From positions 1 through 64,000 of the IMG/VR virus record IMGVR_UViG_3300033520_000026: a DNA stretch of 64,000 bases. One strand, given 5' to 3'. How positions within the stretch are numbered: the first letter of the stretch is position 1; each line of letters opens with the position of its first letter. Source of the DNA: an uncultured virus (IMG/VR IMGVR_UViG_3300033520_000026). Lineage: Duplodnaviria; Heunggongvirae; Uroviricota; Caudoviricetes. Made by a program: the position numbers and the translations under genes. The notes beneath the pieces were generated by a model. That model did not search any database. It was not told where the DNA came from and saw only the letters and a program-made list of their open reading frames with translations. Positions 8,639 to 30,721 of the stretch are shown piece by piece.

Positions 8639-8654
8639 TTGCTGCATCATAGGG

Positions 8655-9892: not shown

Positions 9893-9905
9893 AGGAGATG
9901 CACAG

Positions 9906-10094: not shown

Positions 10095-10132
10095 GGATAG
10101 CAGGCGAACCCAGGTTCGCGTGAGGTGGCCGT

Positions 10133-14486: not shown

Positions 14487-14509
14487 ATCAATAGGTTAGG
14501 AGCGAAAAC

Positions 14510-15001: not shown

Positions 15002-15019
15002 GGCGGCGAGGAGAATACG

Positions 15020-15559: not shown

Positions 15560-15598
15560 TACACGAGGCGGCGGGCGAGGAGGCCGCGTGATACCCAC

Positions 15599-16162: not shown

Positions 16163-16177
16163 AGAAAACGGTACAAT
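16148..16177 (+). promoter_or_regulatory. Putative promoter of the LAGLIDADG gene; its -35 box lies in the last codons of tube gene 2
   Basis: TTGTCT-18 bp-TACAAT, then GGAGGT RBS and ATG 16198. Confidence 0.45.
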
Positions 16178-16197
16178 CTCCAAATCGGAGGTGTGCC

Positions 16198-17211
16198 ATG
16201 GGAAAGAGATTTAGTGAGCAGGAACGGATGGAAGCGGTAGCCGCATACGTTGGCGGGGAATCCTTGGGAGCGGTGGCAACTCGTATGAGTGCCTCGGTGC
16301 AGTCCGTTAGCAACTGGGTAACTGCTTCTGGGATGCGCATGAGGAGTCATGCGGCATCGCATGCGTTGGCGGTGGAGCGAGGGCTTGGACGATTCCGTGG
16401 GAGAGCGGTATGTGAGCAGGCCGAGGCGCTGTATTGCGACGGGATGGGGACGACGGCTATTGCCAAAGAAATGGGTGTTCCGGTTGGCTTTGTGATGGGC
16501 GTCATAGAGCGTGCGGGCATCCTACGTACTCGGAAAGAGGCGGCGATATTGGCAGCGGATGCGACTTCGCAGCGTATGCGCCAGTACGCGGTCAACGAGG
16601 CGGCCTTCGATGGGGAGCTAGACGTTCCACGGGCATGGGCGCTGGGGGTCATTTACGGAAACGGGTGGATTGCTCGGGCCAATGGTGTGGAGCATGGCGT
16701 AGGTGTGTGTGGGGATGAGGATGTCGTGTGCAAGGTGTTGGCGATTCTTGGCAGTGAGCATCCGGTCAATAAAAAAGGCGGATGTTTCATTGCAGAGATC
16801 GGAAGCATGCGGTTGGCACGGAACATCGCACGGTGGGGGGTGACGCCTGCTAAGGCGCGCACGCTGGTGTGGCCGAGGTCTCTGCCAGTCGAATTGGAGA
16901 CACATTTTTTGCGCGGTCTGTTCGATGCGGATGGATGGGTGGGGCGTGATCCGATGAAGCCTGTCATCGGGATTGGGCTTGCAGCGAAATCGATCATTGA
17001 GTCCATTGCAGATCGGATGGCGCAGATCGCTGGTCGGCGGCCGAAGGTTCAGCATGGCAAGGCACGTAAGAAAACGCATGCGGATAGACACACCGTTGTT
17101 CTGTATGGAGATCGTGCTCGCTTGTGGGGCCAGTGGTTGTGGGGTGATAGTATCGAGACAATGCGCAGTGAGCGTAAGCATGGGCTATTCGCGCTCCTGA
17201 GCGTGACGTGA
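16198..17211 (+). mobile_element. Free-standing LAGLIDADG homing endonuclease gene with N-terminal HTH-like repeats
   Basis: Two LAGLIDADG-type helices (AWALGVIYGNGWI and HFLRGLFDADGWV); RBS GGAGGT; ends in a copy of the tube-2 C-terminus (FALLSVT). Confidence 0.85.
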
Positions 17212-17221
17212 GGAGGACGCG

Positions 17222-17650
17222 ATGAGGAAGTTGATCGAACAGATTCAGGACGTTATTGGGTCGATAGAGATGGATGAGGCCAGTGGTGCCATGGGTAAGT
17301 CCAAGGTTCCTGACATGTTCAAGCAGATTGAGAAGAATCATTCAGAACTGAATGGTCTCATACGCAAAGTAGAGCACGAGATCTTGCTGGAGTTGGATGC
17401 CATCATGGGACTACGGGGGTTGGATGTGAATGTCGATATTTCTCCGAATGGGAATATGCTTAGTATGGAAATCGAGGTGGTCGCGCCACCCGAGGCACTG
17501 AAACCTAATACTGGCGCATATGACGAGTATTTTGAGAAATTAAGTAATTGGACAAAACGGGCGTTCCCTTGGAACGCAGCGATAGACATAAAAGGAAGTG
17601 GTAATCTCTTGATTCATGGCGTTCGGATTGTCTCAACTCAGAGGAAGTAA
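17222..17650 (+). CDS. Leader-bearing putative internal (capsid-packaged) protein; A/T-richer cassette
   Basis: N-terminus MRKLIEQIQD..MDEA; flanked by 39-bp direct repeats. Confidence 0.7.
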   Translation: MRKLIEQIQDVIGSIEMDEASGAMGKSKVPDMFKQIEKNHSELNGLIRKVEHEILLELDAIMGLRGLDVNVDISPNGNMLSMEIEVVAPPEALKPNTGAYDEYFEKLSNWTKRAFPWNAAIDIKGSGNLLIHGVRIVSTQRK

Positions 17651-17733
17651 AGCAAGGACGCTGATTATCCGCAGGACTGAGTGTTCGTCCGTGACGGAAT
17701 TCGCCCTGCTGAGCGTGACATGAGGAGGACGTG

Positions 17734-19266
17734 ATGAGACGACTGATTAAGAGACTCAACCATCTGATGGCTTCCGCGAGAGAGATTCAATACGAGGGCA
17801 AGGGCGAGAAGGCGGCGGCGGAAGAAGCCAGGCGCATCGTCAATCTCCTTTCCGTCATGATGGAGCAGGCTGGGTACGAGATTGAGTATTCGTCGAAGGC
17901 CGACGAGTGGGTGGTGTGGGTCGATGGGAAGACCGGCGGTGCTGTGACGCTGTGGAAGAATCCCAAGGGCGACTGGCAGTTGATCAGCGGCGTGCCGGAG
18001 ATGGCCAAGCTGAGCACGAAGCCGTATGCGCACAAGGTCGACTTGCTCCGCGATCCGAAGCGCAAGGAGAACCGGGAGGCGTTGCGGGCCGCGACCGCGA
18101 TAGCGGAAAAGGTCATGGACAAGACGCGGGAGGGGACGCTGACCAAGGACTTCGCGCCCAAGTTTTCGACGGCGATACGGGCACGCAAGGACATGGGGGA
18201 TCCGGGCGGGGCAGCGGCGATGGGCGAAGAGATGGCGTTTGACATGCACAAGCAGGCCCAGGCGCTGTACCTCAAGGGCTGGGACGAGCACCCGAGCCCG
18301 AATGGCAAGCGGACGGCCTACGGGCGGACCTTCAAGTTGGGGTCAGTTGACGTGCCGCTGCGCATCATTCAGGAGGACGATGCGGGGAAGGCGTGGCGCG
18401 TAGACCGCAAGGGACTGCCCACCTGGGAGGCGATGTTCGACGGCAAGGAGTTCAAGTCGGCGGCAGCGGCGGGGCAGGCTGTAGCCGGTTGGTGGAAGCA
18501 GGTCGAGGCGGCATTCGAGCGGCTGACCAAGGATGGGTACAGAGCGCACGAGGCAGCCTTCAAGGCGCTGTCCAAGGTGCGGGAAGAGGACGTGGCGCGG
18601 GAGGGGCGAGCGGCGCTGCCCGAGGCCGAGGAGATGCTCTACGTTGACCAGCAGGCGGGGTTGGCAGTGGGGCAGACCATCGAGCGGGACAACCTGCGCA
18701 TGCACCGCTTCAATTCCAGCCTGCGCGTGACGGACGTCACCAATGCGGGGAAGCGCGGCAAGAAGTGCCCCGAGTTCGCCCTGTTCAACCTGGACTACGG
18801 CCAGCGCGATCCCAAGGACGTGGCGAAGATCAACGAGGCGTTGAAGGCCATCGTGAAGGCGAAGACCTATGCGCAGGCGGTGGCCATTGCCCGTGGGGTA
18901 GCGGCGAAGGATTCACAGCGCGGGATGTCGTTTGCGAGCATTGAGGAGCGCGATCTTCGCGGGGTCGATGTGGAGCCGATGGCACCGGCGGCGGGGTCCG
19001 CGATCCAGGTCGAGACGCCGACGTTCACGCTGAAGGCGTCGCGCACGGAATTCGACGTGATGGAGAAGCCCCGGCCGGGGACGGACGGCCAGGACGTGAC
19101 GGCGGTGATTCCGCCGGTAGGCGGCGCGAAGAAGACTGCGATTGCGCGGTTCTATGCGTGGGTGGGGTCGCACCAAGCGGAGATCAAGGGCATGACGTTC
19201 CGGGAGCTGTTGCGGGCGATGTCGGCAGCGGATCTGGACTATCACGCCTACAGCATGTTGGACTGA
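17734..19266 (+). CDS. Large leader-bearing putative internal protein, multi-domain
   Basis: N-terminus MRRLIKRL; RBS GAGGAGG; typical codon usage. Confidence 0.75.
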   Translation: MRRLIKRLNHLMASAREIQYEGKGEKAAAEEARRIVNLLSVMMEQAGYEIEYSSKADEWVVWVDGKTGGAVTLWKNPKGDWQLISGVPEMAKLSTKPYAHKVDLLRDPKRKENREALRAATAIAEKVMDKTREGTLTKDFAPKFSTAIRARKDMGDPGGAAAMGEEMAFDMHKQAQALYLKGWDEHPSPNGKRTAYGRTFKLGSVDVPLRIIQEDDAGKAWRVDRKGLPTWEAMFDGKEFKSAAAAGQAVAGWWKQVEAAFERLTKDGYRAHEAAFKALSKVREEDVAREGRAALPEAEEMLYVDQQAGLAVGQTIERDNLRMHRFNSSLRVTDVTNAGKRGKKCPEFALFNLDYGQRDPKDVAKINEALKAIVKAKTYAQAVAIARGVAAKDSQRGMSFASIEERDLRGVDVEPMAPAAGSAIQVETPTFTLKASRTEFDVMEKPRPGTDGQDVTAVIPPVGGAKKTAIARFYAWVGSHQAEIKGMTFRELLRAMSAADLDYHAYSMLD

Positions 19267-19278
19267 AGGAGCACTGCC

Positions 19279-20007
19279 ATGACGACCATGAACGATCTGT
19301 TTGAGAGCATGGAGACTGCCCAGGATGAGGCGGAGTTCTTCGAGGCGATCCTGGCAGCAGACGACGATCTTCTGGACGAGGTGTTCGACGAGGAAGATGT
19401 GGAGCGTCTGGCGATCATGGCCCAGCTCATTGGTGCGGCGGAGGCGGGGGCGCTATCCGAAGACCAGGACGATATGCTGGAGGGGTTTCGGAGCTGGATG
19501 GCCAAGAAGAAGACGCAGATTGCGAGCAAGTTGCCGCCGGGCGCGAAGATGGTATTCGGCAAGATCGTGAAGGGCGGCAAGGTGGTGGGGGGCGCGGCCA
19601 AGAAGGCCGTGGCGGGGGCGCAGAAGGCGGTCCAGAAGGGCGTGGCGGCCAAGCGGGCGGTGCAGGGCGCGGCGTATCGGTTCACGGACGCGGGCAAGAA
19701 GGCCCATGCGGCGGCGAAGAAGGTGGCGGACACCAAGGGCCGCAAGGCGGGGGACGCGGCGTGGAAGGCGTCCCAGGACACCTACAAGAAGCACGTCAAG
19801 GGCGGCGAGAGCCACGCCTATGCCACGGCGCAGGCGCAGAAGGCGGGGGCGCGATCCGGCGGGGAGAAGGCGAAGGCCAAGCCGAAGGCGGGCAAGGGCA
19901 AGAAGTCGGTTGCGCCGCCTCCACAGGGAGCGGAGCCGGTGAAGAAGACGCGGAAGCGCAAGCCGAAGATGGAAGACGTGTTTGCCTATGTGCAGGCTGA
20001 AGCATAG
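19279..20007 (+). CDS. Leader-bearing protein with an acidic N-terminus and a K/A-rich, histone-H1-like C-terminus
   Basis: MTTMNDLFESME; D/E-rich first about 68 aa, then K/A/G-rich. Confidence 0.75.
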   Translation: MTTMNDLFESMETAQDEAEFFEAILAADDDLLDEVFDEEDVERLAIMAQLIGAAEAGALSEDQDDMLEGFRSWMAKKKTQIASKLPPGAKMVFGKIVKGGKVVGGAAKKAVAGAQKAVQKGVAAKRAVQGAAYRFTDAGKKAHAAAKKVADTKGRKAGDAAWKASQDTYKKHVKGGESHAYATAQAQKAGARSGGEKAKAKPKAGKGKKSVAPPPQGAEPVKKTRKRKPKMEDVFAYVQAEA

Positions 20008-20037
20008 ACGCGAACCTGAGTTCGCCCGGAGGATGAC

Positions 20038-20493
20038 ATGACAACGATGCGGACACTGATCGAGGGGTTGGTTTTGCTGGGCAAAGGAAATACTAAAAAA
20101 TCTCTTGTCAGTGGTGTTCTGCTGCGATTGGCAACGGATCTGGCGCGGAAGTGGAAATTACCCAGTGTGGCATTGGACTTCTCCAAGACACTCAACCTTG
20201 CTGGATATGACGCATCATCAAACCAGTGGGATGTGCAGTTCTCGACGGATATTGTCGATGGGCGGTGGGCAGAAATCAGTTTTACGATTAATGATGACAG
20301 GATCGAATTGCTTGCGCAGTTACTTGATGACACCGGGAAGACTTATTCTGAACAGGGCAAGAAACATGAAAAGCGGAATGCGCGTGGGAAAGTGATCATT
20401 GGACGCGTGGTTGATGAGGTGAAAGGAGTCTTGGACCGTACTGAAGATAGTGATTTGTTTGCGATGAAATTATCTGATTTTTCAGTCAGGTGA
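20038..20493 (+). CDS. Leader-bearing putative internal protein; A/T-richer cassette
   Basis: MTTMRTLIEG; bracketed by ~49-bp repeats at 20003 and 20598. Confidence 0.7.
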   Translation: MTTMRTLIEGLVLLGKGNTKKSLVSGVLLRLATDLARKWKLPSVALDFSKTLNLAGYDASSNQWDVQFSTDIVDGRWAEISFTINDDRIELLAQLLDDTGKTYSEQGKKHEKRNARGKVIIGRVVDEVKGVLDRTEDSDLFAMKLSDFSVR

Positions 20494-20632
20494 TTTGTTG
20501 AAACGATCTGTAATCACTTGGAGGAAAGCCATGACATGGAATATCAATTCCTCAAAGGATATAAGCATGACTAGGATCGCTTCTGACCAGTAAGGAACAT
20601 AGACGCGAACCTGGGTTCGCCTGGAGGATGCC

Positions 20633-21226
20633 ATGACGACGATGCGACGACTATCCGGCCTGTTGACCGAGGCGACCATGAAGCGGCAGGGCCAGATCTT
20701 GCCGACCGAGCAGCGGGACTACGGGTACTTCGGACGGATCGAGTTCCGGTTTGAAAACGCGGACGCGATCTGGGCGGAGACATTTCGCCTGATCATGTCC
20801 GAGATGCCAGACGTATCGTCGGCGGCGATCCGTAACTACCTGGACTCGAAGAGCGGGATGAACTTTGGCGATCTGGTGGCGGCGGAATTGAAGGACACGT
20901 TGCCGACCCCGGATACGGCTGCGTATGGCCGGGTGTTCAATCCCAAGATGGCGGACGTGAAGCGCGTCGTGGCGTCCGTGTTTGGCAAAAACGCCTGGGT
21001 GCGGAAGCACGTCGAGGCGTATGCCAAGGACCAGGAAGCCTCCACCAGCGGGACGATGTCGGACATTGGCCGGTGGGTGATCGCTGTTGTCGATGATTTC
21101 GAGCTGGCACAGGACCAGGAGAAGAAGAAGAACTGGAAACAGCGGGATGCGGCTTTGCACAGCTTGCAGAAGGCGGCTGACCAGTTGCTCACGACGTCGC
21201 GGGCCTGGATGGCCCAGCGGAGGTAG
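20633..21226 (+). CDS. Leader-bearing putative internal protein
   Basis: MTTMRRLSGLLTEA; RBS GGAGG. Confidence 0.75.
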   Translation: MTTMRRLSGLLTEATMKRQGQILPTEQRDYGYFGRIEFRFENADAIWAETFRLIMSEMPDVSSAAIRNYLDSKSGMNFGDLVAAELKDTLPTPDTAAYGRVFNPKMADVKRVVASVFGKNAWVRKHVEAYAKDQEASTSGTMSDIGRWVIAVVDDFELAQDQEKKKNWKQRDAALHSLQKAADQLLTTSRAWMAQRR

Positions 21227-21234
21227 GGTCACTG

Positions 21235-21672
21235 ATGGATGAACGGGCACAGGTCGCGGCGGGCATCCTGGATCGCGTGCGGGCGATGCTGCTGGAGCGT
21301 CGCCTGACGGCCCGTGAGGCCCCACAGCCGCGCCCGAGCCAGGGGGCTGCTCGTGCTACGGCTCGCCTGTGGGCGCCGCTCCTGGGGGCGAACAAGCGCC
21401 CGGTGGGGGAGGTGCGCGTGGTGGTCATCGTGCCGAACGATCCGGCGGAGGCGGCGGACGTGCATGTGCGGTGGTCGCGGATGGGCTTTGGGTTCTGGTA
21501 CGTGAAGACGGCGGACGTGGGGGTGGTGGTGGAGGCCGAGGACGCGGACCTCGCAGCGGTAGAGATGATCCTGACGGCGGTGGGCTGGACGGCAGCGGGA
21601 TCGGTCCCGTTGCGGTCGATGAACATGATGTTTCCCAAGGTGCGCCGGAGCGTGAGCGACGTAGCGCGATAA
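21235..21672 (+). CDS. Hypothetical protein
   Basis: Co-oriented, tight packing, G/C-ending codons. Confidence 0.65.
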   Translation: MDERAQVAAGILDRVRAMLLERRLTAREAPQPRPSQGAARATARLWAPLLGANKRPVGEVRVVVIVPNDPAEAADVHVRWSRMGFGFWYVKTADVGVVVEAEDADLAAVEMILTAVGWTAAGSVPLRSMNMMFPKVRRSVSDVAR

Positions 21673-21682
21673 GGAGTGAGCC

Positions 21683-22483
21683 ATGGCAACGATGCGAACA
21701 TTGGTGAAGGACATGAGGGCGCTGGTCGAGGGCGACGTGGCAGCGGGACGTGGCCACAGGAGCCTGTCCGAAGGCGTTAGTGTAGATGATGTCAAGTCGG
21801 CGTTGAACAAGTTTGTTTTGAAAAAGATGGGACGCGGGCTGCATGACTGGAAGGTTGGAATACATTCTCCTCCAATGAACGTGCGTTTTGTCTTTGGTGT
21901 TCCATGGAAAAAATATCCTGGAGAGGCGTATGATCTTGAGGATGACATCGAAGCTGTTTTAGTCAGGACGATTGGAAGTGAAAATAAAATATGGGTGTGG
22001 CGACATGACGATGTTGATAACTATGTTTACTACCAAATAGAATTTCCTAAAAAAGCGGTATCTATTTACGAGGACGTTCGAGTGGTCTGTGGCCACAGGG
22101 GCCTGTCCGAAGCACGGATCGACGAGGCCAGCGGATCGGGACGTACCTGGGCCGACTTCGAGGGCGATGCCTTGGAGATGTTCTGTAAAGAGGTGGCGGC
22201 GGGCATCAAGAAATTGGCGGGTGGCCATGCCGAGTCCGTCAATGTGGAGCGCTCGCGCAACACTGTCTGGGTGGAGTACAAGGGGCAGAATCGCAGTGAT
22301 TTCGATCTGGAGTGGCAGGGGAGTTTAGTTACGGGAACAGGGGATGGTCACGAGGTTCTGATCAACGCGAGCTGGAAAGCGGCTGATGGCCTACAGCGCG
22401 TGGAACGCGATGTTCGGATGCGGGCAGGGATGGTTACGGCACAGAATGTCGTGAATCTCTTCGCCGAGGCATTTGGCAGATGA
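21683..22483 (+). CDS. Leader-bearing putative internal protein with an in-frame A/T-richer inserted domain
   Basis: MATMRTLVKDMRALVEG; internal 24-bp direct repeats at 21750 and 22089. Confidence 0.75.
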   Translation: MATMRTLVKDMRALVEGDVAAGRGHRSLSEGVSVDDVKSALNKFVLKKMGRGLHDWKVGIHSPPMNVRFVFGVPWKKYPGEAYDLEDDIEAVLVRTIGSENKIWVWRHDDVDNYVYYQIEFPKKAVSIYEDVRVVCGHRGLSEARIDEASGSGRTWADFEGDALEMFCKEVAAGIKKLAGGHAESVNVERSRNTVWVEYKGQNRSDFDLEWQGSLVTGTGDGHEVLINASWKAADGLQRVERDVRMRAGMVTAQNVVNLFAEAFGR

Positions 22484-23058
22484 CGACCATGCGATCCCTG
22501 TTCGAGGCGGTCGAGGGGAGGGAGTGGATCTTGGATCGTCCCTGGACGGTGGGGGCGTCGGCGTATCAGGCGGCCTTGAACGTCCATGAGCCCTGGGTCG
22601 CTGAGATCAGCCCGATGCAGTACGCGCACATGAGCAAGAGTGCCAAGGCGCAGTACGACAAGAAGCGGGCGGGGGAGTGGGAGGCGTCGGCGGCGGCGAA
22701 GGATAAGTGGCGGCAGGCGGTGTTGAAGGCGTTTGCCGAGGGGAAGTTCCAGCGCAAGGACGCGGACGTGCATCCTGACGCCGACATGGCGATCTTCCTG
22801 GCGCAGCAGGCAGCGGAGAAGGATGCGGCAGCGGCGCAGGCCAAGGAGCGCGGCCGGGAGAACGCCATTACGCGGGCCGACCAGGTGAAGGTGGGCGATG
22901 TCGTGTGGGTGGTGCTCTCGGGCAGCTACCAGACGGTGACCAAAGTCTCGCAGAAGTCCGTGATGGTGACGGGCAAGTTCGGGCCGATGAAGGTCACGAT
23001 GTCGGAGAAGTCGCCGCAGTTGAACTGGAAGAGCTACAATGACCTGCATGGCAAGTAG
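22480..23058 (+). CDS. Leader-bearing putative internal protein with an SH3/KOW-like C-terminus
   Basis: MTTMRSLFEAVEG; VKVGDVVWV..VTKVSQKSVMV. Confidence 0.7.
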   Translation: MTTMRSLFEAVEGREWILDRPWTVGASAYQAALNVHEPWVAEISPMQYAHMSKSAKAQYDKKRAGEWEASAAAKDKWRQAVLKAFAEGKFQRKDADVHPDADMAIFLAQQAAEKDAAAAQAKERGRENAITRADQVKVGDVVWVVLSGSYQTVTKVSQKSVMVTGKFGPMKVTMSEKSPQLNWKSYNDLHGK

Positions 23059-23073
23059 GGATAGGAGAGAGCC

Positions 23074-23490
23074 ATGACGATGAGAACCTTGATCGAGCGG
23101 TTTGAACGGATCATGGAGGCCCGCAGTGCGAATGTCGCCATCAGGCAGATAGCGGAGTTTTCTATGGAAATTCGTGCGATCCCGCGTGTTCGATCCAACG
23201 AGATTGCGCTTGAGGACAGGAACACGGCGGAGGACGTCTATCGCAATGCCCGGCGGATCGCCGACCGAGTCTTTTCCGGTCTCCTGGACGTTGGGAACGA
23301 CGAGCTTGCCCACGAAATTGAGGACATAGCTACCGACATGGATGCCGCTTACAAGGCGTTCGAGTCGGCGTGGATGAGGGTGCGAAAGGCTGGAACCACG
23401 GCATCGGATCCATCTGCTGTGGTGGAGAGTTATGAGCGTCTACGGGGGCAGGTGGATCGTTTGAAGAAAGCCATTGGGAGGATCGGATGA
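23074..23490 (+). CDS. Leader-bearing putative internal protein
   Basis: MTMRTLIERFERIMEAR; RBS AGGAG. Confidence 0.75.
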   Translation: MTMRTLIERFERIMEARSANVAIRQIAEFSMEIRAIPRVRSNEIALEDRNTAEDVYRNARRIADRVFSGLLDVGNDELAHEIEDIATDMDAAYKAFESAWMRVRKAGTTASDPSAVVESYERLRGQVDRLKKAIGRIG

Positions 23491-24101
23491 GGCACTTGAT
23501 CGAGCGAGTGGAGCGGATCATGGAGGCCCGTGGCACGGAGGTGCTCGTGAAGGAGCTGCCGGACGTGCTGCGCAAGGCGTTGAAGGACGTGGGCTACCGG
23601 AGCCGGGACATCGCGGTGGTGCCGCAGGCGCTGGTCAGCCTGAACCCCTACGCGGGGGACGGGGAGCGGGGCTTCGCGGTGCTGGTGAACCTGGCCACGG
23701 GCGCGACCAAGACGGTGCAGGGCGACTGGGGCGGGTACAGCCCGGTGGGGAAGCCCTCTATCGACCAGGATCGTGGCGAGCATCCGCTGCCTCGGGACGG
23801 CGTGGCCATCGTGGGGTCGAGTGGCGGGCGGGGCACCTACGCGACGATCTACGTGCATCCCGACAGCGTGGTGCCGTTGCTGCCGGGGGCCGTGGAGATG
23901 ACGGATCGTGAGGCGGGCATCCTGCGGAGCATGGCGATGACGTCGAGCTATCGCAAGGAGCTGTTCGCGGACATGAAGGTGCAGCCGGGCGAGGTGGACG
24001 CGCTGGTCGAGCGTGGATGGATTGCACGGAACAAGGCAGGGGCGTTGAGCTTGACGACGGCGGGCAAGAACGCGGCTTCGGCTGCTCACGGACGACGTTA
24101 G
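23487..24101 (+). CDS. Leader-bearing putative internal protein; its 3' end is repeated three times downstream
   Basis: MRHLIERVERIMEAR; winged-helix-like C-terminus LVERGWI..LSLTTAGKNAASAAHGRR. Confidence 0.75.
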   Translation: MRHLIERVERIMEARGTEVLVKELPDVLRKALKDVGYRSRDIAVVPQALVSLNPYAGDGERGFAVLVNLATGATKTVQGDWGGYSPVGKPSIDQDRGEHPLPRDGVAIVGSSGGRGTYATIYVHPDSVVPLLPGAVEMTDREAGILRSMAMTSSYRKELFADMKVQPGEVDALVERGWIARNKAGALSLTTAGKNAASAAHGRR

Positions 24102-24110
24102 GAGAGACGA

Positions 24111-24515
24111 ATGTCCACGATGCGCAAGCTGGCTGAGCAGTTGAAGGCAGCATCCGATGACGTTGCAGGCATTGGAACGATTAGATTATTGGGAGAGTCT
24201 ATGACGAATCCGAATGAACCGTATGCAACGTCGATACGGAACGCTTGGAGTGGGTTGTCCGTGTGGGCGGATGACATCGGGAAGCGGTTGACTAAGAGTA
24301 TTGGAGATGGCGTCAAGATCGTGGGAAGTATTGGTGTAGCCAAGGGAGTGGGTGATGCTGTGGAGGTGGTATTGAGTTTTCATATGCTTGGCACGCTGGA
24401 TGAAGAAGATGTATTTGATATGGCGTTGGTCAGGTTACAGAATTTAACGAATAGCACATGGGTGAAGGCAAAGCGGAACCGAAAGTTTGCGCTTGTTGCC
24501 ACCTATGATTTCTGA
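24111..24515 (+). CDS. Leader-bearing cassette protein, paralogue of ORF 26190
   Basis: MSTMRKLAEQL; shares W..W...G..L..IG..V...G..GV..D.VE..LVATYD with 26190. Confidence 0.75.
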   Translation: MSTMRKLAEQLKAASDDVAGIGTIRLLGESMTNPNEPYATSIRNAWSGLSVWADDIGKRLTKSIGDGVKIVGSIGVAKGVGDAVEVVLSFHMLGTLDEEDVFDMALVRLQNLTNSTWVKAKRNRKFALVATYDF

Positions 24516-24596
24516 AGCTTTAGATGCTGTTGAGTCTGACAACGGCGGGCAAGAACGCGGCTTCGGCTGCTCACGGTAGATGAAAAGGAGAGCGTC

Positions 24597-25049
24597 ATGG
24601 GAATAGAGCTACAGTCCTGGAATGCGTATCAGGTGATCCCGGATGAAGGGGTTAAGAAGCTTTTGGGTGTCGTGAAGACGAATCCTGGGAAAGATGCGAA
24701 GAAGCACGCCATCGGGAAAGCGATGAAAAAGTGGGGCGTGCATGGCGCCACCATTGGTTGGCATGTGGAAGTGAGCCCAGTTGAGCAGTCCGAACAACTG
24801 GCATCGAATGGGATGCGCCAGTTGTTTGAGAGACTCCAGATGGAGTCCATGGTCAAGGTTGGCAATGAAGAAATGGCGAAGGAATTCGCAAAAGAGAAAC
24901 AGGCATTTTACGGCATGAGTGTCTTTGATGGGAAATGGTACATCGGAGATATGGAGAAGCTGAAAAAGCTCGGAATCAATAGAATTATGGATGCTTCAGG
25001 GAAAGTAGCATGGGAGCAGAAGTTCCGTTTTCAGGGTAAGGAAATTTAA
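24597..25049 (+). CDS. Cassette protein with an internal leader-like motif
   Basis: RBS AGGAG; internal NGMRQLFERLQMES; A/T-richer. Confidence 0.7.
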   Translation: MGIELQSWNAYQVIPDEGVKKLLGVVKTNPGKDAKKHAIGKAMKKWGVHGATIGWHVEVSPVEQSEQLASNGMRQLFERLQMESMVKVGNEEMAKEFAKEKQAFYGMSVFDGKWYIGDMEKLKKLGINRIMDASGKVAWEQKFRFQGKEI

Positions 25050-25089
25050 GAACGCGGCTTCGGCTGCGCACAAGTAAAAGAGGTAAGCG

Positions 25090-25425
25090 ATGGCACGGAG
25101 CATGAAGAGTCTGATTGAGGGAATGCAGAAGATAATGGAGGCCCAATCTCTCGGAGGAGATCATGGCCGACCAAGAAGAATTGTGAAGATGGCAGCGGAA
25201 CAGATGCAAAGCATTGAAGGAAAAGATTGGTTACTGCGCGACGAAAGAGGCACATGGGAGAAAGAAGCTGCTCGACTTATAGATCAAGTGAAGGAAAAGG
25301 CAGAACAGCACGGGTTGAGTGATTCCGATGTTGATGAGCAGATTGCAACATATTTGTCTATAATGGTTTTGCAGACTCTTATAAATGATGCAAAGAAGGG
25401 ATCAAGAAAAAGAGCAAAGAAGTGA
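25090..25425 (+). CDS. Leader-bearing cassette protein
   Basis: MARSMKSLIEGMQKIMEA; A/T-richer. Confidence 0.7.
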   Translation: MARSMKSLIEGMQKIMEAQSLGGDHGRPRRIVKMAAEQMQSIEGKDWLLRDERGTWEKEAARLIDQVKEKAEQHGLSDSDVDEQIATYLSIMVLQTLINDAKKGSRKRAKK

Positions 25426-25488
25426 ACTTTTGAATATGTCATGAAATTGGATAAAAACGCGGCGGCGGCGCACGGACGGTGATGATGG

Positions 25489-26193
25489 ATGGCGGTGAAC
25501 GACGGTAGGCAGACAGGAGGCCCCATGCAGCCCTCGAACAGCTTGATCGTGAATGGTGAGAAGGTGTCGCTGCCCAAAGCGGTGTTGGACCTGGGCGTGC
25601 GTGGCACCAACTACATCGACGATGAGGAGCCCTGCTTGCGCAACAAGCCGCGCACGGCGAAGGTTTCGCATCTTGTGCTTCACGAGACGGCTGGGAACAG
25701 CGCGACGGGGTGCAAGGACACGTTGCGTGAGAAGAAGCTCGGCGTGCATCTGATCTTGGGCAAGGACGGTCTGCTGTCGTGTCACGCGGACTTGGCGTTG
25801 GACATTTGTTTTCACGGAAACCAGCTCAACTCCACCTCTGTTGGGATCGAGGTTGTGAACGCCTACAGACCGGAATTCGCAAGGAAGCCGTGCGGTCCTG
25901 TGTTGCCGGCGAATTGGTGGACGTGGGTTCCGCCTGGTCATGCGCGGACCTACCAGGCACCGCTTGGAATCCAGGTGGCGTGCATTCAAGCGCTGGTTCC
26001 TTGGCTGTGCGAATTGATGAAGATTCCATATGTGTTTCCGACGAAGAACTTTAACGCGAAGACACCCAAGATCTCTGGCTGGAAGGCTCCTCCATTGGGG
26101 TGGTACGCGAAGCCGGGACCGGGCGTTGTGGCGCATTCTGATTTCGCCAGCCATGCAGACGGCCGCTACCTACTAGAGCAGTTGATCGTATGA
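25489..26193 (+). CDS. N-acetylmuramoyl-L-alanine amidase (Amidase_2-type), probable endolysin; the start may be at 25525
   Basis: HLVLHETAG, GVHLILGKDG, FHGNQLNSTSVGIEVVN and VVAHSDF zinc-amidase motifs. Confidence 0.85.
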   Translation: MAVNDGRQTGGPMQPSNSLIVNGEKVSLPKAVLDLGVRGTNYIDDEEPCLRNKPRTAKVSHLVLHETAGNSATGCKDTLREKKLGVHLILGKDGLLSCHADLALDICFHGNQLNSTSVGIEVVNAYRPEFARKPCGPVLPANWWTWVPPGHARTYQAPLGIQVACIQALVPWLCELMKIPYVFPTKNFNAKTPKISGWKAPPLGWYAKPGPGVVAHSDFASHADGRYLLEQLIV

Positions 26194-26549
26194 AAGGGTC
26201 GCACATGGAAACCATGCTGAAGCTGTTTGAGGCGAGGGCCAATGCCGGGGAGCCAGTGGTTGCGGATTTTCGGAAGTCATGGGGTGAGATGGAGGAGTGG
26301 GCGAGCCAGTTGGGGCGGGCCTTGAACCGGGAGATCGGCGGGAAGGTGCGCTTCTTGGGCGGTGTTGGAGTGTCGAGAACCGCGCTTGATACGGTGGAGA
26401 TCTATGTGAATCTGGACGCGCCTGGGGAGCGCGAGAAGGATGAGACGTTGCGGCAGGCCATGACCTGGTTGAAGCAGCACACGAAGAGCGCCTGGGAGTT
26501 GAAGGAGCGTTACGGGAAGCCATCGTTGGTGGCCACATACGATCTCTGA
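26190..26549 (+). CDS. Leader-bearing protein, paralogue of ORF 24111
   Basis: METMLKLFEAR; ends SLVATYDL. Confidence 0.7.
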   Translation: MKGSHMETMLKLFEARANAGEPVVADFRKSWGEMEEWASQLGRALNREIGGKVRFLGGVGVSRTALDTVEIYVNLDAPGEREKDETLRQAMTWLKQHTKSAWELKERYGKPSLVATYDL

Positions 26550-26564
26550 AGGGATGCGTGGAGG

Positions 26565-26900
26565 ATGAATTCAAGCGACCGATTGCGTGCTTTGCTCGAC
26601 GATTTGCCTCCGGCTCCCCGAAGGGTTGTGCTGTCTGAGGCTGACGAGCGGATAATGCGGTCGTTGCGGACTCAGGGGGAGCGTGCGGTACGAGGTCGGC
26701 TTGTGACGCGCTATCGGTTTGAGGCGGTGGAGAGGCCGCGTGGGATTTCGTTGGTTATGCGGATCGAGGGGCGGCATGCGATGTCTGTGGCGCAGCAGCT
26801 TGCCAAGCGGTTTGGCATGGCGGAAGATATTGGGAATGCCGAGGTGACCCGCACCGAGCGGGGGGCCGTGTTGGAGCTGCGGCCACGGGAGACGCGATGA
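26565..26900 (+). CDS. Hypothetical protein (variant leader RLRALLDDL..VLSEA)
   Basis: GGAGG directly upstream; tight packing. Confidence 0.6.
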   Translation: MNSSDRLRALLDDLPPAPRRVVLSEADERIMRSLRTQGERAVRGRLVTRYRFEAVERPRGISLVMRIEGRHAMSVAQQLAKRFGMAEDIGNAEVTRTERGAVLELRPRETR

Positions 26901-27052
26901 TTGTCGAGGTAAAGAAGATCCAGAGCACGAGGAAGGGTCGAAAATCTTCGGTTGATTTGCGGCGGTCTCGCACGTCGGGTATTGTGCCGTTGCCGATATC
27001 CATGAGCACCAATGCGCCGTTGCCGGCGGTCCCAGCCACAGGCGGGCCATAG
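26897..27052 (+). CDS. Small basic hypothetical protein (51 aa, MIVEVKKIQST...)
   Basis: ATGA overlap with the previous stop and exactly fills the gap; not in the ORF track. Confidence 0.4.
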   Translation: MIVEVKKIQSTRKGRKSSVDLRRSRTSGIVPLPISMSTNAPLPAVPATGGP

Positions 27053-27061
27053 GAGAATCTG

Positions 27062-27397
27062 ATGAACGCGAAAATTTCCAAGATGAACACCATGCGGAAG
27101 ATCATGCGCGAGGTTGAGCTGTCGAGCGGCGGCGAACCGATGGGCGAGGCAGTGAACGCGGGGCTGATAGACCGCATGGCGAAGGCCATGTTGAACAGCC
27201 CGAAGCTGGACCCGCTGACGGGGCGCATCTTCGACACGGACCAGTTGGAGATGTTCCATGGGTTGATGTTGGAGCCCTTGCGGGCTCTGATTGCGAAGGC
27301 CCTGGACGTCGCCGGCGTGGAGGTTTCCGGTGGCGTGTTGGCCAAGGCAGGCAGGGAAATGAAGAGCGCAGCACGGGGCGACATCGGCGTTGAGTAG
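27062..27397 (+). CDS. Leader-bearing hypothetical protein
   Basis: MNTMRKIMREVE motif near the N-terminus; RBS AGGAG. Confidence 0.65.
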   Translation: MNAKISKMNTMRKIMREVELSSGGEPMGEAVNAGLIDRMAKAMLNSPKLDPLTGRIFDTDQLEMFHGLMLEPLRALIAKALDVAGVEVSGGVLAKAGREMKSAARGDIGVE

Positions 27398-27413
27398 ACG
27401 CCTGGAGGCAAGC

Positions 27414-27743
27414 ATGACGTTACGCAGGTTGGCTCATGAAGTGCGGCGTGCTTTGGAAGAGGCAGCGCCGGAGTTTCGATCCGGGCGCGCTGAAGTGGAG
27501 CGCTTGATCGACGCCATGCTGTCGGGGTCGCAGGTGTCGCCAAAGGCACAGGCGGTCATCGGCAAGGACGGCGACGTGAACGCGCTTGTGGCAGAGCTGC
27601 GCCTAGCGCTGTACCCCATCGTCGTACACACCCTGCAAAAGCTCGGCGGTAAGGTGAGCGGGTCGAGCAACGTGAAGGCTGCCTTGCGCGGCCTGGCCCG
27701 GGAGGAGCGCGAGCACCCCCCGAGGCCCGCCGTGGAGCTGTAG
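27414..27743 (+). CDS. Leader-bearing hypothetical protein, weakly similar to ORF 27062
   Basis: GGAGG RBS, MTLRRLAHEVRRALEEA; both proteins have LID..ML.S and (E/K)VSG segments. Confidence 0.6.
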   Translation: MTLRRLAHEVRRALEEAAPEFRSGRAEVERLIDAMLSGSQVSPKAQAVIGKDGDVNALVAELRLALYPIVVHTLQKLGGKVSGSSNVKAALRGLAREEREHPPRPAVEL

Positions 27744-27755
27744 GCGACTAGGCGA

Positions 27756-28217
27756 CTAGGCGGTCTGGAGGGCAGCGTCGGCGGCGGCGGCGGTGACTTC
27801 GACCACTTCCCCTTTGAACTTGGCAGCGCCAGAGACTTTCGTCTTGGGCAGGCTGTTCTTGACATCCGCGAAGATGGCAGAGATGCGACCTTGAGGGTCG
27901 TACTCTTCGACGAGCGCCTGGCGATTGGTCTTGTTGACCTTGGCGTCGCCGTTGACGGACTGCTTGGCGAGGTCGGAGATGATCTCGCAGGCGCGTTCGC
28001 GGGTGCATCCGCTCATCTTGAGCGCGATGATGAGGAACTCTTCGGAGAGAAGGCTCGAAGTGGAGGTCTTCTCGGTGTCAGGACCGATCTCAAGGGAGCC
28101 GGAGATGTGGACGGTGACGTCCACGAGATGTTCGCCCGGGGTGAGGGCGGAGCGGGCGTCTTTGGCGTCCTTGTCTTTGACGGCCTTACTGATGGCGATG
28201 ATACTGGCGTTGTCCAT
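27756..28217 (-). CDS. Hypothetical protein (153 aa, MDNASIIAISK...)
   Basis: AAGGAGG RBS on the minus strand; own promoter upstream. Confidence 0.75.
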   Translation of the reverse strand: MDNASIIAISKAVKDKDAKDARSALTPGEHLVDVTVHISGSLEIGPDTEKTSTSSLLSEEFLIIALKMSGCTRERACEIISDLAKQSVNGDAKVNKTNRQALVEEYDPQGRISAIFADVKNSLPKTKVSGAAKFKGEVVEVTAAAADAALQTA

Positions 28218-28270
28218 ATGAGCCTCCTTGTGCGACCGAGCATCCGCGCTCGGCATCTTGCCTGTCTCTC

Positions 28271-28299
28271 AATTTAACCGCTCACATTTTGTTTGTCAA
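28271..28299 (-). promoter_or_regulatory. Sigma70-type (early-like) promoter
   Basis: Minus strand gTTGACAaac..17 bp..TAAATT. Confidence 0.7.
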
Positions 28300-28337
28300 C
28301 AACTGCGTTTGCGCTTTTTTGGAGAAAAGACTCCCAT

Positions 28338-28417
28338 GAAAACGGAATAGTTATTGGATATTCCTTGGGCGATATGCAAAATCCCGAGGTCGTCCAGAAC
28401 CGACCGGATAAATATGC
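28338..28417. repeat. 80-bp non-coding repeat, copy 2
   Basis: Matches 5052-5131. Confidence 0.9.
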
Positions 28418-28445
28418 TGGAAAAGGGGACGAACCCAGGTTCGTA

Positions 28446-28739
28446 TCAGGCGTCGTCGTCATCGTCACCGGATTCCTTTCGCGTGAGCAGGATCGCCGGC
28501 CCGGCGATGTAGTCGCCTTCCCGCAGGTAGGGGGCGACGTAGGCGGTGGCCAGCAGGTTGGGTGGCAATCCGTGCAGCTTGCCTTCCTCGTTGATGCAGA
28601 GGATGAGTCCCTCTTGATCCAGCGTGACGAATTCGATGTAGCCGCCCACCAATGATTGCAGCTCGTCCAGGTCGAACGAGGCACCTTTGTTTGGGGTGAT
28701 CCATGTGGCTTCGCCGGTCACGGGGATGAGTCGTGCCAT
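28446..28739 (-). CDS. DUF3846-like phage protein
   Basis: LDELQSLVGGYIE..INEEGKLHGLPPN..AT..DYIAGPAIL. Confidence 0.75.
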   Translation of the reverse strand: MARLIPVTGEATWITPNKGASFDLDELQSLVGGYIEFVTLDQEGLILCINEEGKLHGLPPNLLATAYVAPYLREGDYIAGPAILLTRKESGDDDDDA

Positions 28740-28964
28740 TTATTTCCTCCCGAGGTGGCGGGCGATTTCTTGGAGCGCCCTAGTTTGTTCTTCTTGCGTG
28801 CGCACGAGGCGTTCGAGCAGGGCGTCGGCCTGACGTTGCTGGTAGGTCGTCTCGGCGTGTGCCGGTGACGCGACCAGCGCGGCCAGTGATCCGCCCAGGA
28901 CGAAGACAAGCAGGACGAACAGGCCCACGAACATCCAACGTGGAAGTGGAAACTCTGGTCCCAT
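28740..28964 (-). CDS. Small membrane or signal-peptide protein (74 aa)
   Basis: Hydrophobic helix followed by AHA|E and a coiled-coil-like tail. Confidence 0.55.
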   Translation of the reverse strand: MGPEFPLPRWMFVGLFVLLVFVLGGSLAALVASPAHAETTYQQRQADALLERLVRTQEEQTRALQEIARHLGRK

Positions 28965-28966
28965 GG

Positions 28967-29335
28967 TCAACTCCAGACCAGGGCGGTGTTGAGGAGGATG
29001 CACGTCGAGACGACCTTGAGGAGGCCGTGGATGCGCTCGCGCTCGCGCTCCTCGGTGGTCCCGCAGTCGACGACTCCGCAGCGTTCGGGACCGGGGCGCT
29101 GGAGGACGGTGGCTTCGCAGGAGTACACCTCGCGTTGGTTGAGGGCGCGGAGCAGGTTCCGGGTCACGGCGTAGAGGTCGGCGACCGGGACTTCGCCCGT
29201 GGAATCGTTGGGGAGCCCGGCTACGTCCATCATGCGGGATGCGTTGCCGTTGGAGAAGTTGATCCACGCCTGGGGCTCGGGACCGTATGGGCCCTCGATC
29301 TCGGGGCACTCGCGGGGTTTGAATGTGACGCTCAT
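28967..29335 (-). CDS. Hypothetical protein (MSVTFKPREC...)
   Basis: AAGGAGG RBS; INFSNGNASRMMDVAGL. Confidence 0.65.
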   Translation of the reverse strand: MSVTFKPRECPEIEGPYGPEPQAWINFSNGNASRMMDVAGLPNDSTGEVPVADLYAVTRNLLRALNQREVYSCEATVLQRPGPERCGVVDCGTTEERERERIHGLLKVVSTCILLNTALVWS

Positions 29336-29583
29336 GCGTCCTCCTTGGGGGCCGGGATGAACCGGCATCCTGGGACTGTGGCCACGATGTCGGCCAGCGT
29401 GCCATACCGGATGACCATTGGCTGGTCTTTCCGGTCGTATTCGCCATCGTCGCGGGGGGCGAGGCACATGTCGTACAGGATCATTCCTTCGGGAATGGCC
29501 CAGGAGATGTCGGACTCGTCGCGGTCGTAGATGCTGGCGATGATGGTTTTTTCTACGAGCATTTGGAACCTCCCGGCGGCCAT
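29332..29583 (-). CDS. Hypothetical protein
   Basis: First gene after the minus-strand promoter; ATGA overlap with the next gene. The start may be the internal Met (MLVEK). Confidence 0.6.
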   Translation of the reverse strand: MAAGRFQMLVEKTIIASIYDRDESDISWAIPEGMILYDMCLAPRDDGEYDRKDQPMVIRYGTLADIVATVPGCRFIPAPKEDA

Positions 29584-29605
29584 CGTTGACCGCCATCTGC
29601 CCTAG

Positions 29606-29633
29606 AATTTAAGGCTGCAATAGCGTTTGTCAA
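29606..29633 (-). promoter_or_regulatory. Sigma70-type (early-like) promoter
   Basis: Minus strand gTTGACAaac..16 bp..TAAATT; same extended consensus as 28271-28299. Confidence 0.65.
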
Positions 29634-29669
29634 CCGAATTTGCAAGCTGAGTATGCTCGGCGTTGCAGA

Positions 29670-29717
29670 TTGACAGGATGAGCACATGATGAGTAAGGTT
29701 TGAGCATGATATGAGCA
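29670..29717 (+). promoter_or_regulatory. Promoter overlapped by four TGAG(C/T)A repeats at 11-bp spacing (putative RHH operator)
   Basis: TTGACA-18 bp-TAAGGT; TGAG at 29679, 29690, 29701 and 29712. Confidence 0.6.
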
Positions 29718-29727
29718 AGGGGTGCGC

Positions 29728-29922
29728 ATGCGTCTGAATGTAGAGTGCCAGGATGATGTGTTGGAAGAGTTTCGCAAGCGGGCAGACGGCATTGGGCGAT
29801 CCGTGTCGGACGTGATCCGCGAGTTGATTGTTGGGTGGGTTCGTTCGGAGCGTCGTGCTGAAGCAGAACGGCTGTCACTGGATGCACAGCTAAAACAAAG
29901 ATGGAGGGATGGAGATGACTGA
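29728..29922 (+). CDS. Ribbon-helix-helix (CopG/Arc-like) DNA-binding protein
   Basis: MRLNVEC..VLEEFRKRA...GRSVSDVIRELI pattern. Confidence 0.75.
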   Translation: MRLNVECQDDVLEEFRKRADGIGRSVSDVIRELIVGWVRSERRAEAERLSLDAQLKQRWRDGDD

Positions 29923-30721
29923 GGAGACAACGACTCTGGCGAAGACGAAGGGGCATCTCATGGATGTGTCAGCGGGCATGCTCGCTGTGGAGTTGCCGTG
30001 TGGATATCTGGATTCTTCTGGCATGGTGCATCGTGATCTCGTGGTTGGGGAGATGACTGGTTACGAGGAGGACTTGTTGGCTGGGAAGGGGCCTATCCTG
30101 CCACGTCTGAATCAGATCATCATGAATTGCACGCGTCGCATTGGTGGATTTGAGGACCGATCTCAGATTGGTGCGGCTGTAAATGGTCTGACCGCGAGTG
30201 ATCGCATGGTGGCGTTCCTGGCTATCCGGCGGGTATCGCTCGGGGATTTCTACGACGTGAAGGTGCAGTGTCCGAACCCAGACTGTCGAGAAGAGGTTCG
30301 ATATGCTCTGAATCTTGCGGACGTGGAGATTCATGCCATGGAAGATCCTACGCAGCGGGTGTTTGTGCATACGCTGAAGTCGGGAAGGGTGGTGAGTTGG
30401 CACATCATGTCGAGCACGGACGAAGAGTGGCTGACCACCAAGACGAAGAAGTCCAAGGATGACGTGTTGACGTTGGGCATCATGGCTCGCGTGGACGAAA
30501 TCAATGGTGTGCCGATCAACCGGGAGAAGGACATTGTTGGGGCCATGGCGTTGCTCAAGGCGTTACCCACGCGAGATAGAAACGACATACGTTCTCTGTT
30601 TGAGAAACATGAGGGACACGTCGATACGAATGTAGATTTTTCATGTCCTTCATGTGAGCATGAGTGGAAAGCGGAATTGAATCTGGGGCAGCCCAGTTTT
30701 TTCTTCCCATCGGCCTCGTAG
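29909..30721 (+). CDS. Tail assembly chaperone / baseplate hub assembly protein (T4 gp26-like) with two Cys pairs
   Basis: LPCGY..EMTGYEEDLL..LTASDR..AIRRVSLG..CPNPDC..CPSC..FFFP; directly upstream of the tape measure gene. Confidence 0.75.
   Translation: MEMTEETTTLAKTKGHLMDVSAGMLAVELPCGYLDSSGMVHRDLVVGEMTGYEEDLLAGKGPILPRLNQIIMNCTRRIGGFEDRSQIGAAVNGLTASDRMVAFLAIRRVSLGDFYDVKVQCPNPDCREEVRYALNLADVEIHAMEDPTQRVFVHTLKSGRVVSWHIMSSTDEEWLTTKTKKSKDDVLTLGIMARVDEINGVPINREKDIVGAMALLKALPTRDRNDIRSLFEKHEGHVDTNVDFSCPSCEHEWKAELNLGQPSFFFPSAS

Follow-up and report, generated by a model that had tools for sequence, protein, structure and literature searches.

What process could produce a row of small genes in which each gene is followed by a copy of the 3′ end of one and the same upstream neighbour? 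The question is raised by a stretch of 64,000 nucleotides (the window; positions 1 to 64,000 of IMG/VR record IMGVR_UViG_3300033520_000026), which belongs to an uncultured tailed phage whose full record spans 133 kb and is rated 72% complete. Here a conserved gene, termed X, is followed by three cassette genes (A, B and C) and an endolysin amidase, and the last codons of X recur behind each cassette. The first-pass annotation of this DNA regarded the pattern as a polarised array that grows beside X, possibly by an undescribed route of cargo-gene acquisition. Our analysis points to another reading, to which we assign a probability of about 0.72: general homologous recombination at short conserved boundary sequences would turn over the cassettes between X and the amidase, within a hyperplastic region of the T4 type.

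Copies of the X tail

Gene X (23487–24101, + strand) is an open reading frame (ORF) of 204 amino acids with a GC content of 0.68, the C-terminus of which reads ...ALSLTTAGKNAASAAHGRR before the stop codon. The original copy of the repeat, R1, lies within its last 19 codons (24044–24091), and three further copies follow on the same strand: R2 (24529–24583) consists of 48 nt plus GGTAGATGA, R3 (25048–25077) reads KNAASAAHK up to a stop, and the decayed R4 (25453–25494) reads KNAAAAHGR up to a stop (25453–25482) and is one codon shorter. R2 (24529–24576) is identical to R1 at 45 of 48 positions (94%) and reads LSLTTAGKNAASAAHGR and a stop in the matching frame, the three differences (AGC>AGT, TTG>CTG and ACG>ACA) all being synonymous. 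Searching the 64-kb window with the 24-mer AAGAACGCGGCTTCGGCTGCTCAC at up to 3 mismatches yielded three matches (0, 0 and 1 mismatch) and none in 100 shuffles, and the 17-mer core at up to 2 mismatches was found in the same three places only across the whole 133-kb record (control 0). R4 is too decayed for either search; the copy at the orthologous position of a related locus, L005 (6985–7010), is identical to R1 at 25 of 26 positions. Direct reading, both searches and, for the fourth copy, this orthology confirm the earlier observation that the X 3′ end recurs after each of the next three AT-richer genes, with three near-exact copies and one decayed copy. The relics can be read directly as duplicates of the X 3′ end, as had been proposed, and we interpret the repeats as remnants of the last 8–16 codons of X. 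A second public record, L004, carries the same arrangement with 99.99% identity over 12.6 kb, and hence the array is not an assembly artefact.

The three cassettes, all on the + strand, are AT-richer than their borders. Cassette A (24111–24515, 134 aa, GC 0.49) and cassette C (25090–25425, 111 aa, GC 0.44) begin with a short leader peptide, which in C reads MARSMKSLIEGMQKIMEA, whereas cassette B (24597–25049, 150 aa, GC 0.48) has neither leader nor family match. The N-acetylmuramoyl-L-alanine amidase, the endolysin (25489–26193, + strand, GC 0.58; Pfam Amidase_2, E 9.8e-9), is conserved in the related loci L005, L006 and L009 and forms the fixed right border of the array. Its true start is likely the ATG at 25525, behind the ribosome-binding site CAGGAGG.

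The X protein comprises a leader (MRHLIERVERIMEA), a β-rich core and a C-terminal winged-helix-like domain. Its 31 homologues are all unnamed and lack Pfam domains. In an alignment of 29 of them (the fragments P0006 and P0023 were left out), the best-conserved stretch of the family is the C-terminal motif NKAGAxS(I/L)TTAGKNA. The AlphaFold model of X has a pLDDT of 83.6, with residues 1–13 below 50, and places this conserved stretch in the wing and last helix of the winged-helix-like domain. A Foldseek comparison of the model with the PDB returned nothing at E ≤ 0.001, the sole local fold match being MarR (3vb2_B, 71 columns, E 0.084). Since the tail is the best-conserved stretch of X and the last island of homology before variable DNA, it is here that the joint lies, at a position where recombination between diverged relatives would naturally be resolved. 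In three distant homologues (P0010, P0012 and P0013), X reads without a stop into three different bodies, each initiated by a leader (MRDLLRKLEE and similar); the proteins are genuine fusions, or else a stop codon is missing at this variable slot. The slot behind X thus appears to be variable at greater evolutionary depth as well.

Cassette content of related loci

Searches with X revealed seven further loci beyond the window. Behind X, the window and L004 carry A, B, C and the amidase; L005 carries C, D, E and the amidase; L010 carries C and D up to the contig end; L009 carries E and the amidase; and L006 carries D and the amidase. In L007 and L008, where X is 58–59% identical, another gene follows. 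Cassette C thus stands directly behind X in L005 and L010, and among the viral contigs searched, A and B were seen only in this phage and L004. Relatives therefore differ in gene content at this site, as expected for the variable cassette array that the first-pass annotation had inferred; identical content in all relatives, which that annotation had named as grounds for refutation, was not observed.

Additional arrangements were obtained from Logan contigs of four public runs (X1–X4), which were matched at a likeness of at least 88%, with run shares of at most 0.25 and uncovered parts being uninformative; run X1 gave three pieces under 40 nt and nothing usable. Record 17 of run X4 (depth 24) joins 24045 to 24531 and skips exactly the 485 nt between R1 and R2, so that A is absent and X is joined to the 5′ leader of B; beyond this leader, 340 other letters replace B and C up to R4. 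Record 19 of the same run contains 446 extra letters between 25494 and 25496, the expected position of E, and further contigs join X to E. In record 7 of run X2 (depth 3.65) C precedes B, an order that is suggestive only. The predicted genome with X joined to B did not turn up as a locus: the A and B searches of viral contigs returned only the near-identical L004. Altogether, close relatives combine five cassettes in at least six different ways.

Neither X nor cassettes A–E matched any Pfam or PHROG family. Cassette D of L005 (~452 aa) contains an HExxH motif, and in an Atlas search it scored 0.90–0.91 to unnamed clusters with weak zincin-peptidase family shares (Atlas model pLDDT 0.57), which makes a zincin peptidase a lead only. 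Only the end of D, in L005 and L010, has the repeat in frame. The addition of a repeat-encoded peptide to the cassette proteins by frameshifting was ruled out from the sequence, as no slippery site lies in register.

Exchange at the joints

Aligning nine repeat copies with their flanks separates two influences. Left of the core the sequence tracks the upstream gene (X, the C 3′ flank, and so on), and right of ...GC(T/G)CAC it tracks the downstream cassette: copies preceding C have CACAAGT(A/G)Aaagaggtaag in common, copies preceding E have GGACA(A/G)TGAT(C/G)ATGGATG(G/A)CGAAG, and the right flank of R3 equals the junction of X and C in L005 and L010. As a consequence, the final one to three codons of X depend on which cassette comes next (GRR, K, GQ or ARR before the stop). 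Nine left>right combinations were found in assembled loci (X>A, A>B, B>C, X>C, C>D, D>E, X>E, X>D and C>E-UTR, the last to the 5′ untranslated region, UTR, of E), and two more, X>B-UTR and C>B, in Logan contigs.

The junction between the C 3′ flank and the repeat (...attgga followed by CAAGAAC) is identical with three different right partners, namely the E 5′UTR remnant in the window, D in L005 and L010, and B in record 7 of run X2. The module therefore appears to move by exchange within the repeat rather than being remade each time, and we regard the repeat as a recombination joint common to the cassettes rather than as a stack ordered by age. The relics begin at different points on the left (relative to AAGAAC, −22 in the copy preceding B, 0 in that preceding C, about −4 for D and about −8 for E), indicating several imprecise joins and no fixed crossover nucleotide. 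The 22-nt left extension of R2 corresponds letter for letter to the L005 allele of X, so that the R2 module came from another genome and its "synonymous" differences from R1 are allelic. Furthermore, about 15 nt after R4 (25480–25494) match the start of the E 5′UTR in relatives, so that the window lineage has lost E, and D, relative to an L005-like array. Along X itself, divergence is about 4% and evenly spread in the pattern of single-nucleotide polymorphisms, leaving neither a donor tract nor a direction to be defined for the A/B event.

Further joints in the hyperplastic region

The array occupies one slot within a hyperplastic region of about 10 kb (17222–27743, + strand), which lies between the tail-tube and baseplate modules and contains about 19 small genes in the same orientation. 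Two other kinds of short sequence in this region are associated with the same type of indel.

The first is leader-coding sequence. At the start of the gene 23074–23490 (leader-coding start 23074–23117, + strand), the 5′ part is of the F13 type and the 3′ part of the F3 type. Two additional genes (F13 and F21), flanked by leader copies, stand at this site in L005 and are lacking in the window, and in L009, which is devoid of F21, the leader at this border is an F21/F3 hybrid. The two hybrids are also labelled F8|F3 (window) and F13|F3 (L009). These indel-border leaders are best read as crossovers inside leader-coding sequence.

The second is a stem-loop. A boundary repeat at 20003–20051 (+ strand), consisting of a stop codon, the stem-loop GCGAACCTGAGTTCGC, a ribosome-binding site and a leader start, recurs as stem-loop, ribosome-binding site and leader at 20598–20646 (+ strand) with 92% identity, and between the two lies a low-GC cassette (20038–20493, + strand, 151 aa, GC 0.47). 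At this site a single stem-loop copy without the gene is present in L006, and a different gene in L005. Any short conserved boundary sequence in the region, be it leader-coding sequence or a stem-loop with its ribosome-binding site, appears to serve as a joint in the way that the X tail does.

The stem-loop occurs genome-wide. At up to 1 mismatch, the 133-kb record contains its form GCGAACCnnGGTTCGC, the 16-nt palindrome GCGAACC(Y)(R)GGTTCGC, at 24 sites, compared with 0 for the reversed control. They lie at window positions 4740, 10104, 20010, 20605, 28429, 30919, 37926, 47364, 53341 and 63086 and continue up to genome position 130361, nearly all of them intergenic and just 3′ of stop codons. 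In the 94–118-kb part of the genome, several stem-loops adjoin promoter-like (−35-like) sequences of the GTTGACAAAC type, as judged by eye. The stem-loop probably serves throughout the phage as a terminator, processing or operator element, and together with the promoters it resembles the composite known as promoter-early stem-loop (PeSL).

A different geometry-sharing case is the gene 21683–22483, which has 266 aa in the window and 151 aa in L005. Its extra tract of about 340 nt is bounded by 40-nt direct repeats (21734–21773 and 22073–22112, 80% identical) and represents an insertion or duplication inside the gene that keeps the frame and is flanked by repeats in the same manner.

A model of cassette turnover

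We assessed which recombination functions the phage could provide. Tyrosine and serine recombinases (PF00589 and PF00239) were absent from all four related records in a six-frame search, the records being 72, 91, 83 and 31% complete; PF00589 was detected in 14 of 14 positive-control genomes. The lack of an integrase remarked on in the window hence extends to these records. Pfam scans of 153 ORFs (61 in the window and 92 in the rest of the record, with four ORFs spanning locus borders not scanned whole) identified a RecA/UvsX-like protein (genome positions 121597–122844, E 5e-40) and a DnaB helicase, along with a TnpB at 126.6 kb and a LAGLIDADG match at 15865–17211 that is weak, and no recombinase family other than RecA, TnpB and the weak LAGLIDADG.

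From these data we infer homologous recombination as the agent. The relics of the X tail, one 5′ of each internal cassette, would act as a common homology patch of 24–45 nt, at which the general recombination machinery of the phage, of the RecA/UvsX-like type, would exchange DNA between co-infecting relatives or between copies within one genome. Single-gene cassettes between X and the endolysin amidase would in this way be added, deleted, replaced or reordered, and each exchange would also rewrite the last one to three codons of X. Because the relics differ in their left ends, the first duplications would have to be imprecise joins.

Several observations weigh against this model. The exact homology common to some copies is short (21–35 nt), at the low end for T4-type recombination, for which one study gives homologies under 50 bp (PMC2839356). 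The E indel has at most 2 nt of microhomology, and some events therefore did not use the repeat. Likewise, the core of R4 fits neither L005 R2 nor L005 R3 cleanly, so that the loss of D and E is not assignable to one crossover. All four relic left ends fall within 48 nt of the X stop codon, a clustering that hints at a local hot spot unexplained by plain homologous recombination. Finally, the evidence for exchange comes throughout from the comparison of assemblies; the Logan contigs are assemblies at 88% likeness, at one joint among them, one side comprises no more than 23 letters, and a depth of only 3.65 makes the C>B contig possibly chimeric.

Alternative explanations

Strictly polar growth, the reading of the first-pass annotation, would have each cassette enter beside X with a replacement tail through one homologous and one imprecise crossover, so that order reflects age. 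This would account for A, C, D, E and the B 5′ leader each abutting X in some record, for the differing relic left ends, as from independent imprecise joins, and for the foreign X allele in R2, and it could accommodate the order B–C as well as C–B. However, the one C-flank junction with three right partners (D, B and the E 5′UTR remnant) calls for repeat-to-repeat exchange and under polar growth would need three independent imprecise joins at the same nucleotide. The fall of similarity with distance from X, on which the polar reading had relied, does not amount to an age gradient either, as the internal copy of L005 is nearer to the X tail of the window (25/26) than the own X end of L005 is (28 nt, 82%). 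Moreover, R4 keeps the start of the E 5′UTR, implying that downstream cassettes were lost. Strictly polar growth is thus unlikely as the rule, and polar-type events are probably the first origin of the relics.

Selection could alternatively have kept the repeat as a regulatory RNA element, such as a stabilising UUCG hairpin or a processing or coupling site. The repeat always lies 10–30 nt upstream of a Shine–Dalgarno sequence, and copies 1 and 3, and in part copy 2, are predicted to form a hairpin GCGGC-UUCG-GCUGC with 5–6 bp and no U-tract. The stability of this hairpin nevertheless does not exceed that of shuffled sequence (z 0.04 to 1.03), and compensatory changes that would preserve it are missing from L005 R1, L005 R3 and R4 of the window. 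Rfam gave no family in the region, none of the 10 promoter-like sites in 17000–30000 falls at a repeat copy, and no + strand terminator-like site was found at any copy; with z-scores about 0 and no Rfam family, the RNA-structure reading of the repeat was rejected. In addition, the motif occurs nowhere else in the 133 kb, while the phage uses a different stem-loop genome-wide, the border between D and the amidase in L006 and several other cassette borders lack the repeat, and the 22 extra coding nucleotides of R2 with their allele-specific synonymous changes lack a regulatory rationale. A function of this kind is accordingly quite improbable.

The clustering of the joints could also be taken further. 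The X tail would then be a dedicated hairpin-forming hot spot at which an unrecognised phage nuclease or recombination mediator starts the exchange, forming with the in-frame leader an integron-like platform for capsid-loaded, delivered proteins. We consider this very improbable; if true, environmental T4-like phages would possess a self-diversifying arsenal of injected proteins.

Least probable among these alternatives is an integron- or att-like site-specific system, in which an unrecognised dedicated recombinase or nuclease would cut the repeat with its GCGGC-TTCG-GCTGC hairpin. The geometry is indeed integron-like, with promoterless co-oriented single-gene cassettes ending at the same core, all exchanges fall within about 26–45 nt and the relic left ends within 48 nt, the core can form a 5–6-bp hairpin, and many ORFs of the genome have no known function; yet the att- or integron-like mechanism proposed earlier is disfavoured by the lack of tyrosine and serine recombinases in all four records (one of them 91% complete) and of any other recombinase family in the 153 ORFs, by the variable relic left ends, by hairpin z-scores and the lack of compensatory changes as given above, and by unrelated short repeats that give the same indels in the same region. 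No transfer RNA was found in the region that could serve as an att target. A CRISPR-like array was ruled out, as each unit is an entire gene and coding sequence is what the repeats duplicate.

A shared N-terminal leader

Homologous recombination at boundary sequences, our preferred explanation, also bears on the leader that many genes of the region have in common. The peptide M-(T/A/S)-T-M-R-x-L-(I/F)-E (for example MTTMRTLIE) starts most genes of the 17222–27743 block, and about 15 otherwise unrelated ORFs, most of them in this block, start with M-x-x-M-R-x-L-(I/F)-E. This pattern, defined post hoc, was present in 10 of 17 ORFs of the region and in 3 of 139 elsewhere; for [LI]xE within the first 14 residues the counts were 9/17 and 12/139, and most leader carriers have L-I-E or L-F-E at residues 7–9. 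The leader varies synonymously, and the 12 carriers in the window represent 11 BLASTP families. In the X family it is present in 11 of the 29 aligned homologues, 16 of which begin at the core, and in the model of X it forms a detached helix of low confidence. A second small cluster of leaders is located at genome positions 80863–85254 (80863, 81490, 83113 and 83908).

Cassette A is a 31%-identical paralogue of the conserved gene 26205–26549 with an extra leader in front. Its leader (24111–24200) reads MSTMRKLAEQL, and about 22 residues further on a decayed, leader-like TIRLLGES aligns with the leader of the paralogue, which points to recombination having placed a new leader in front of an older one.

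For T4-type phages, one study describes L/I-X-E as the cleavage motif of the gp21 protease and 10 residues as sufficient for capsid targeting (PMC9026906), and T-even internal-protein loci are depicted in a second source as a diverse set in which a capsid-targeting sequence (CTS) alone is conserved (PMC3012670). The resemblance to these loci is close in several respects. The T-even genes ipI, ipII and ipIII encode unrelated small proteins with a common N-terminal peptide of about 9–10 residues that ends in L/I-x-E (PMC3012670, PMC9026906). T4 IPII and IPIII begin with MKTYQEFIAE, and their genes adjoin the lysozyme gene e. In both phages a gp21/S77-type prohead protease is present, the gene set varies between relatives, and the locus lies beside the endolysin gene (in T4: e, ipIII, ipII). 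T-even internal-protein genes are reportedly swapped by recombination inside the leader, a finding attributed to Repoila et al. in 1994. In contrast to T4, the peptide here is MTTMRTLIE rather than MKTYQEFIAE, and the carriers number about 15 instead of 3–4.

By this analogy the leader-bearing proteins could be packaged in the head, a proposal that we hold tentatively and at slightly below even odds, and they are possibly injected. The full-length protease ORF of a relative, G001, matches the S77 prohead protease family (PF03420) with 51.3 bits at a cut-off of 27 and itself starts with MPQLLIE; the truncated first ORF of the window is 100% identical to it over its 466 residues. Three points count against a capsid-targeting role: the truncated ORF on its own reaches only 21.5 bits against the cut-off of 27, L/I-x-E is a short motif, and cassette B and the amidase have no leader. 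The protease ORF of G001 has 931 aa with a large insert before the S77 part, which looks intein-like by eye.

Should the leader prove to be a tag for loading into the capsid, a handful of codons would both address a protein to the virion and serve as a handle for gene swapping. This would explain the fast diversification of packaged proteins in the arms race with hosts, and candidate injected proteins could be read from sequence in uncultured phages.

Relation to known systems

The closest known system is the PeSL-type modular shuffling in the hyperplastic regions of T4-type phages (Arbiol et al. 2010, PMC2839356; Comeau et al. 2014, PMC4122927). In that system, small ORFan genes of a T4-type hyperplastic region likewise stand between copies of a short conserved sequence, relatives differ by indel or replacement exactly at the copies, with a single hybrid copy where a gene is absent, and the exchange is ascribed to recombination functions of the phage itself, for which small patches of homology are enough. 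The pair of genome-wide stem-loops at 20010 and 20605 displays the classic geometry, as outlined in PMC2839356. With recombination at short conserved boundary sequences already in print (PMC2839356, PMC4122927), the suggestion of an undescribed route had to be given up. In contrast to PeSL, the X repeat is the coding 3′ end of the upstream conserved gene and not a regulatory cassette, it has neither a σ70-like promoter nor a terminator, and it spans 24–48 nt at one locus only, compared with about 100 nt for PeSL. The novelty hence lies in the joint, which is a conserved coding tail rather than a promoter–terminator cassette, and the mechanism itself is known. The PeSL idea would thereby be extended to any short sequence that selection holds constant, such as a coding tail or leader-coding sequence, and the array provides an unusually legible natural record of accessory-gene turnover in a lytic phage without an integrase, with joints that can be read at the nucleotide level.

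Integrons share with the array a one-directional row of single promoterless genes, a recurring site, a fixed platform and variable content. Here, however, neither IntI nor any tyrosine recombinase is encoded, the crossover is imprecise with varying relic ends, and there is no sign of polar insertion; the repeats copy the platform gene's own tail, as opposed to the diverse hairpins of attC. Sites of the attC type are imperfect palindromes of about 57–141 nt with RYYYAAC...GTTRRRY ends, and the repeat core, with 26 nt, a 5-bp stem and the ends CAAGAAC...CTCACGG, does not qualify as one. Tandem integrative elements at an att site are similar in that direct repeats duplicating the 3′ end of the target gene separate the inserts. 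They differ in that the inserts here are single genes of 0.3–1.4 kb without integrase or mobility genes, the region has no transfer RNA, and the same relic joins different partners. No circular joint (mini-circle) was seen among the assembled contigs.

Affiliation of the phage and neighbouring genes

Structural genes on the + strand of the window place the phage near T4: the Pfam scan identified the T4 major capsid protein Gp23 (232 bits), a tail sheath, two gp19 tube proteins, T4_baseplate, gp25 and a gp5-like OB domain, and the portal of the relative G001 corresponds to T4 Gp20 (201 bits). The major capsid protein has a best identity of 30.5% in a protein search against GenBank phages, so that we assign the phage to a distant, uncultured T4-like myovirus. 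A blastn search of 22000–28000 against GenBank phages gave no match, and X had a single protein match there, in an uncultured 485-kb phage; with no nucleotide match and only distant protein matches, there is no cultured relative and no annotation to borrow.

Several further genes stand out. Directly behind the major capsid gene, a 545-aa protein (3156–4793) matches the Mom family and GNAT acetyltransferases (Mom E 1.9e-9) and has a possible DNA-modification function. The ORF at 15865–17211, which overlaps the end of the second tail-tube gene, has weak LAGLIDADG_3 and HTH matches (E about 1e-4) and may be a homing endonuclease inside the tail module. A block of four ORFs on the minus strand (27756–29930) breaks up the + strand structural genes, and two promoter-like sites of the form TTGACA-N16/17-TAAATT (10/12 matches) lie on the minus strand at 29633 and 28299. 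Outside the window, genome positions 126605–127864 encode the TnpB/IS605 OrfB-type protein, with matches to Cas12f1-like TNB, OrfB_IS605 and HTH_OrfB_IS605. In G001 (locus L020), the protease ORF described above (14338–17133) is preceded by a terminase-like ORF (5425–10650) of 1741 aa with an Intein_splicing domain and HNH_3/NUMOD3 matches.

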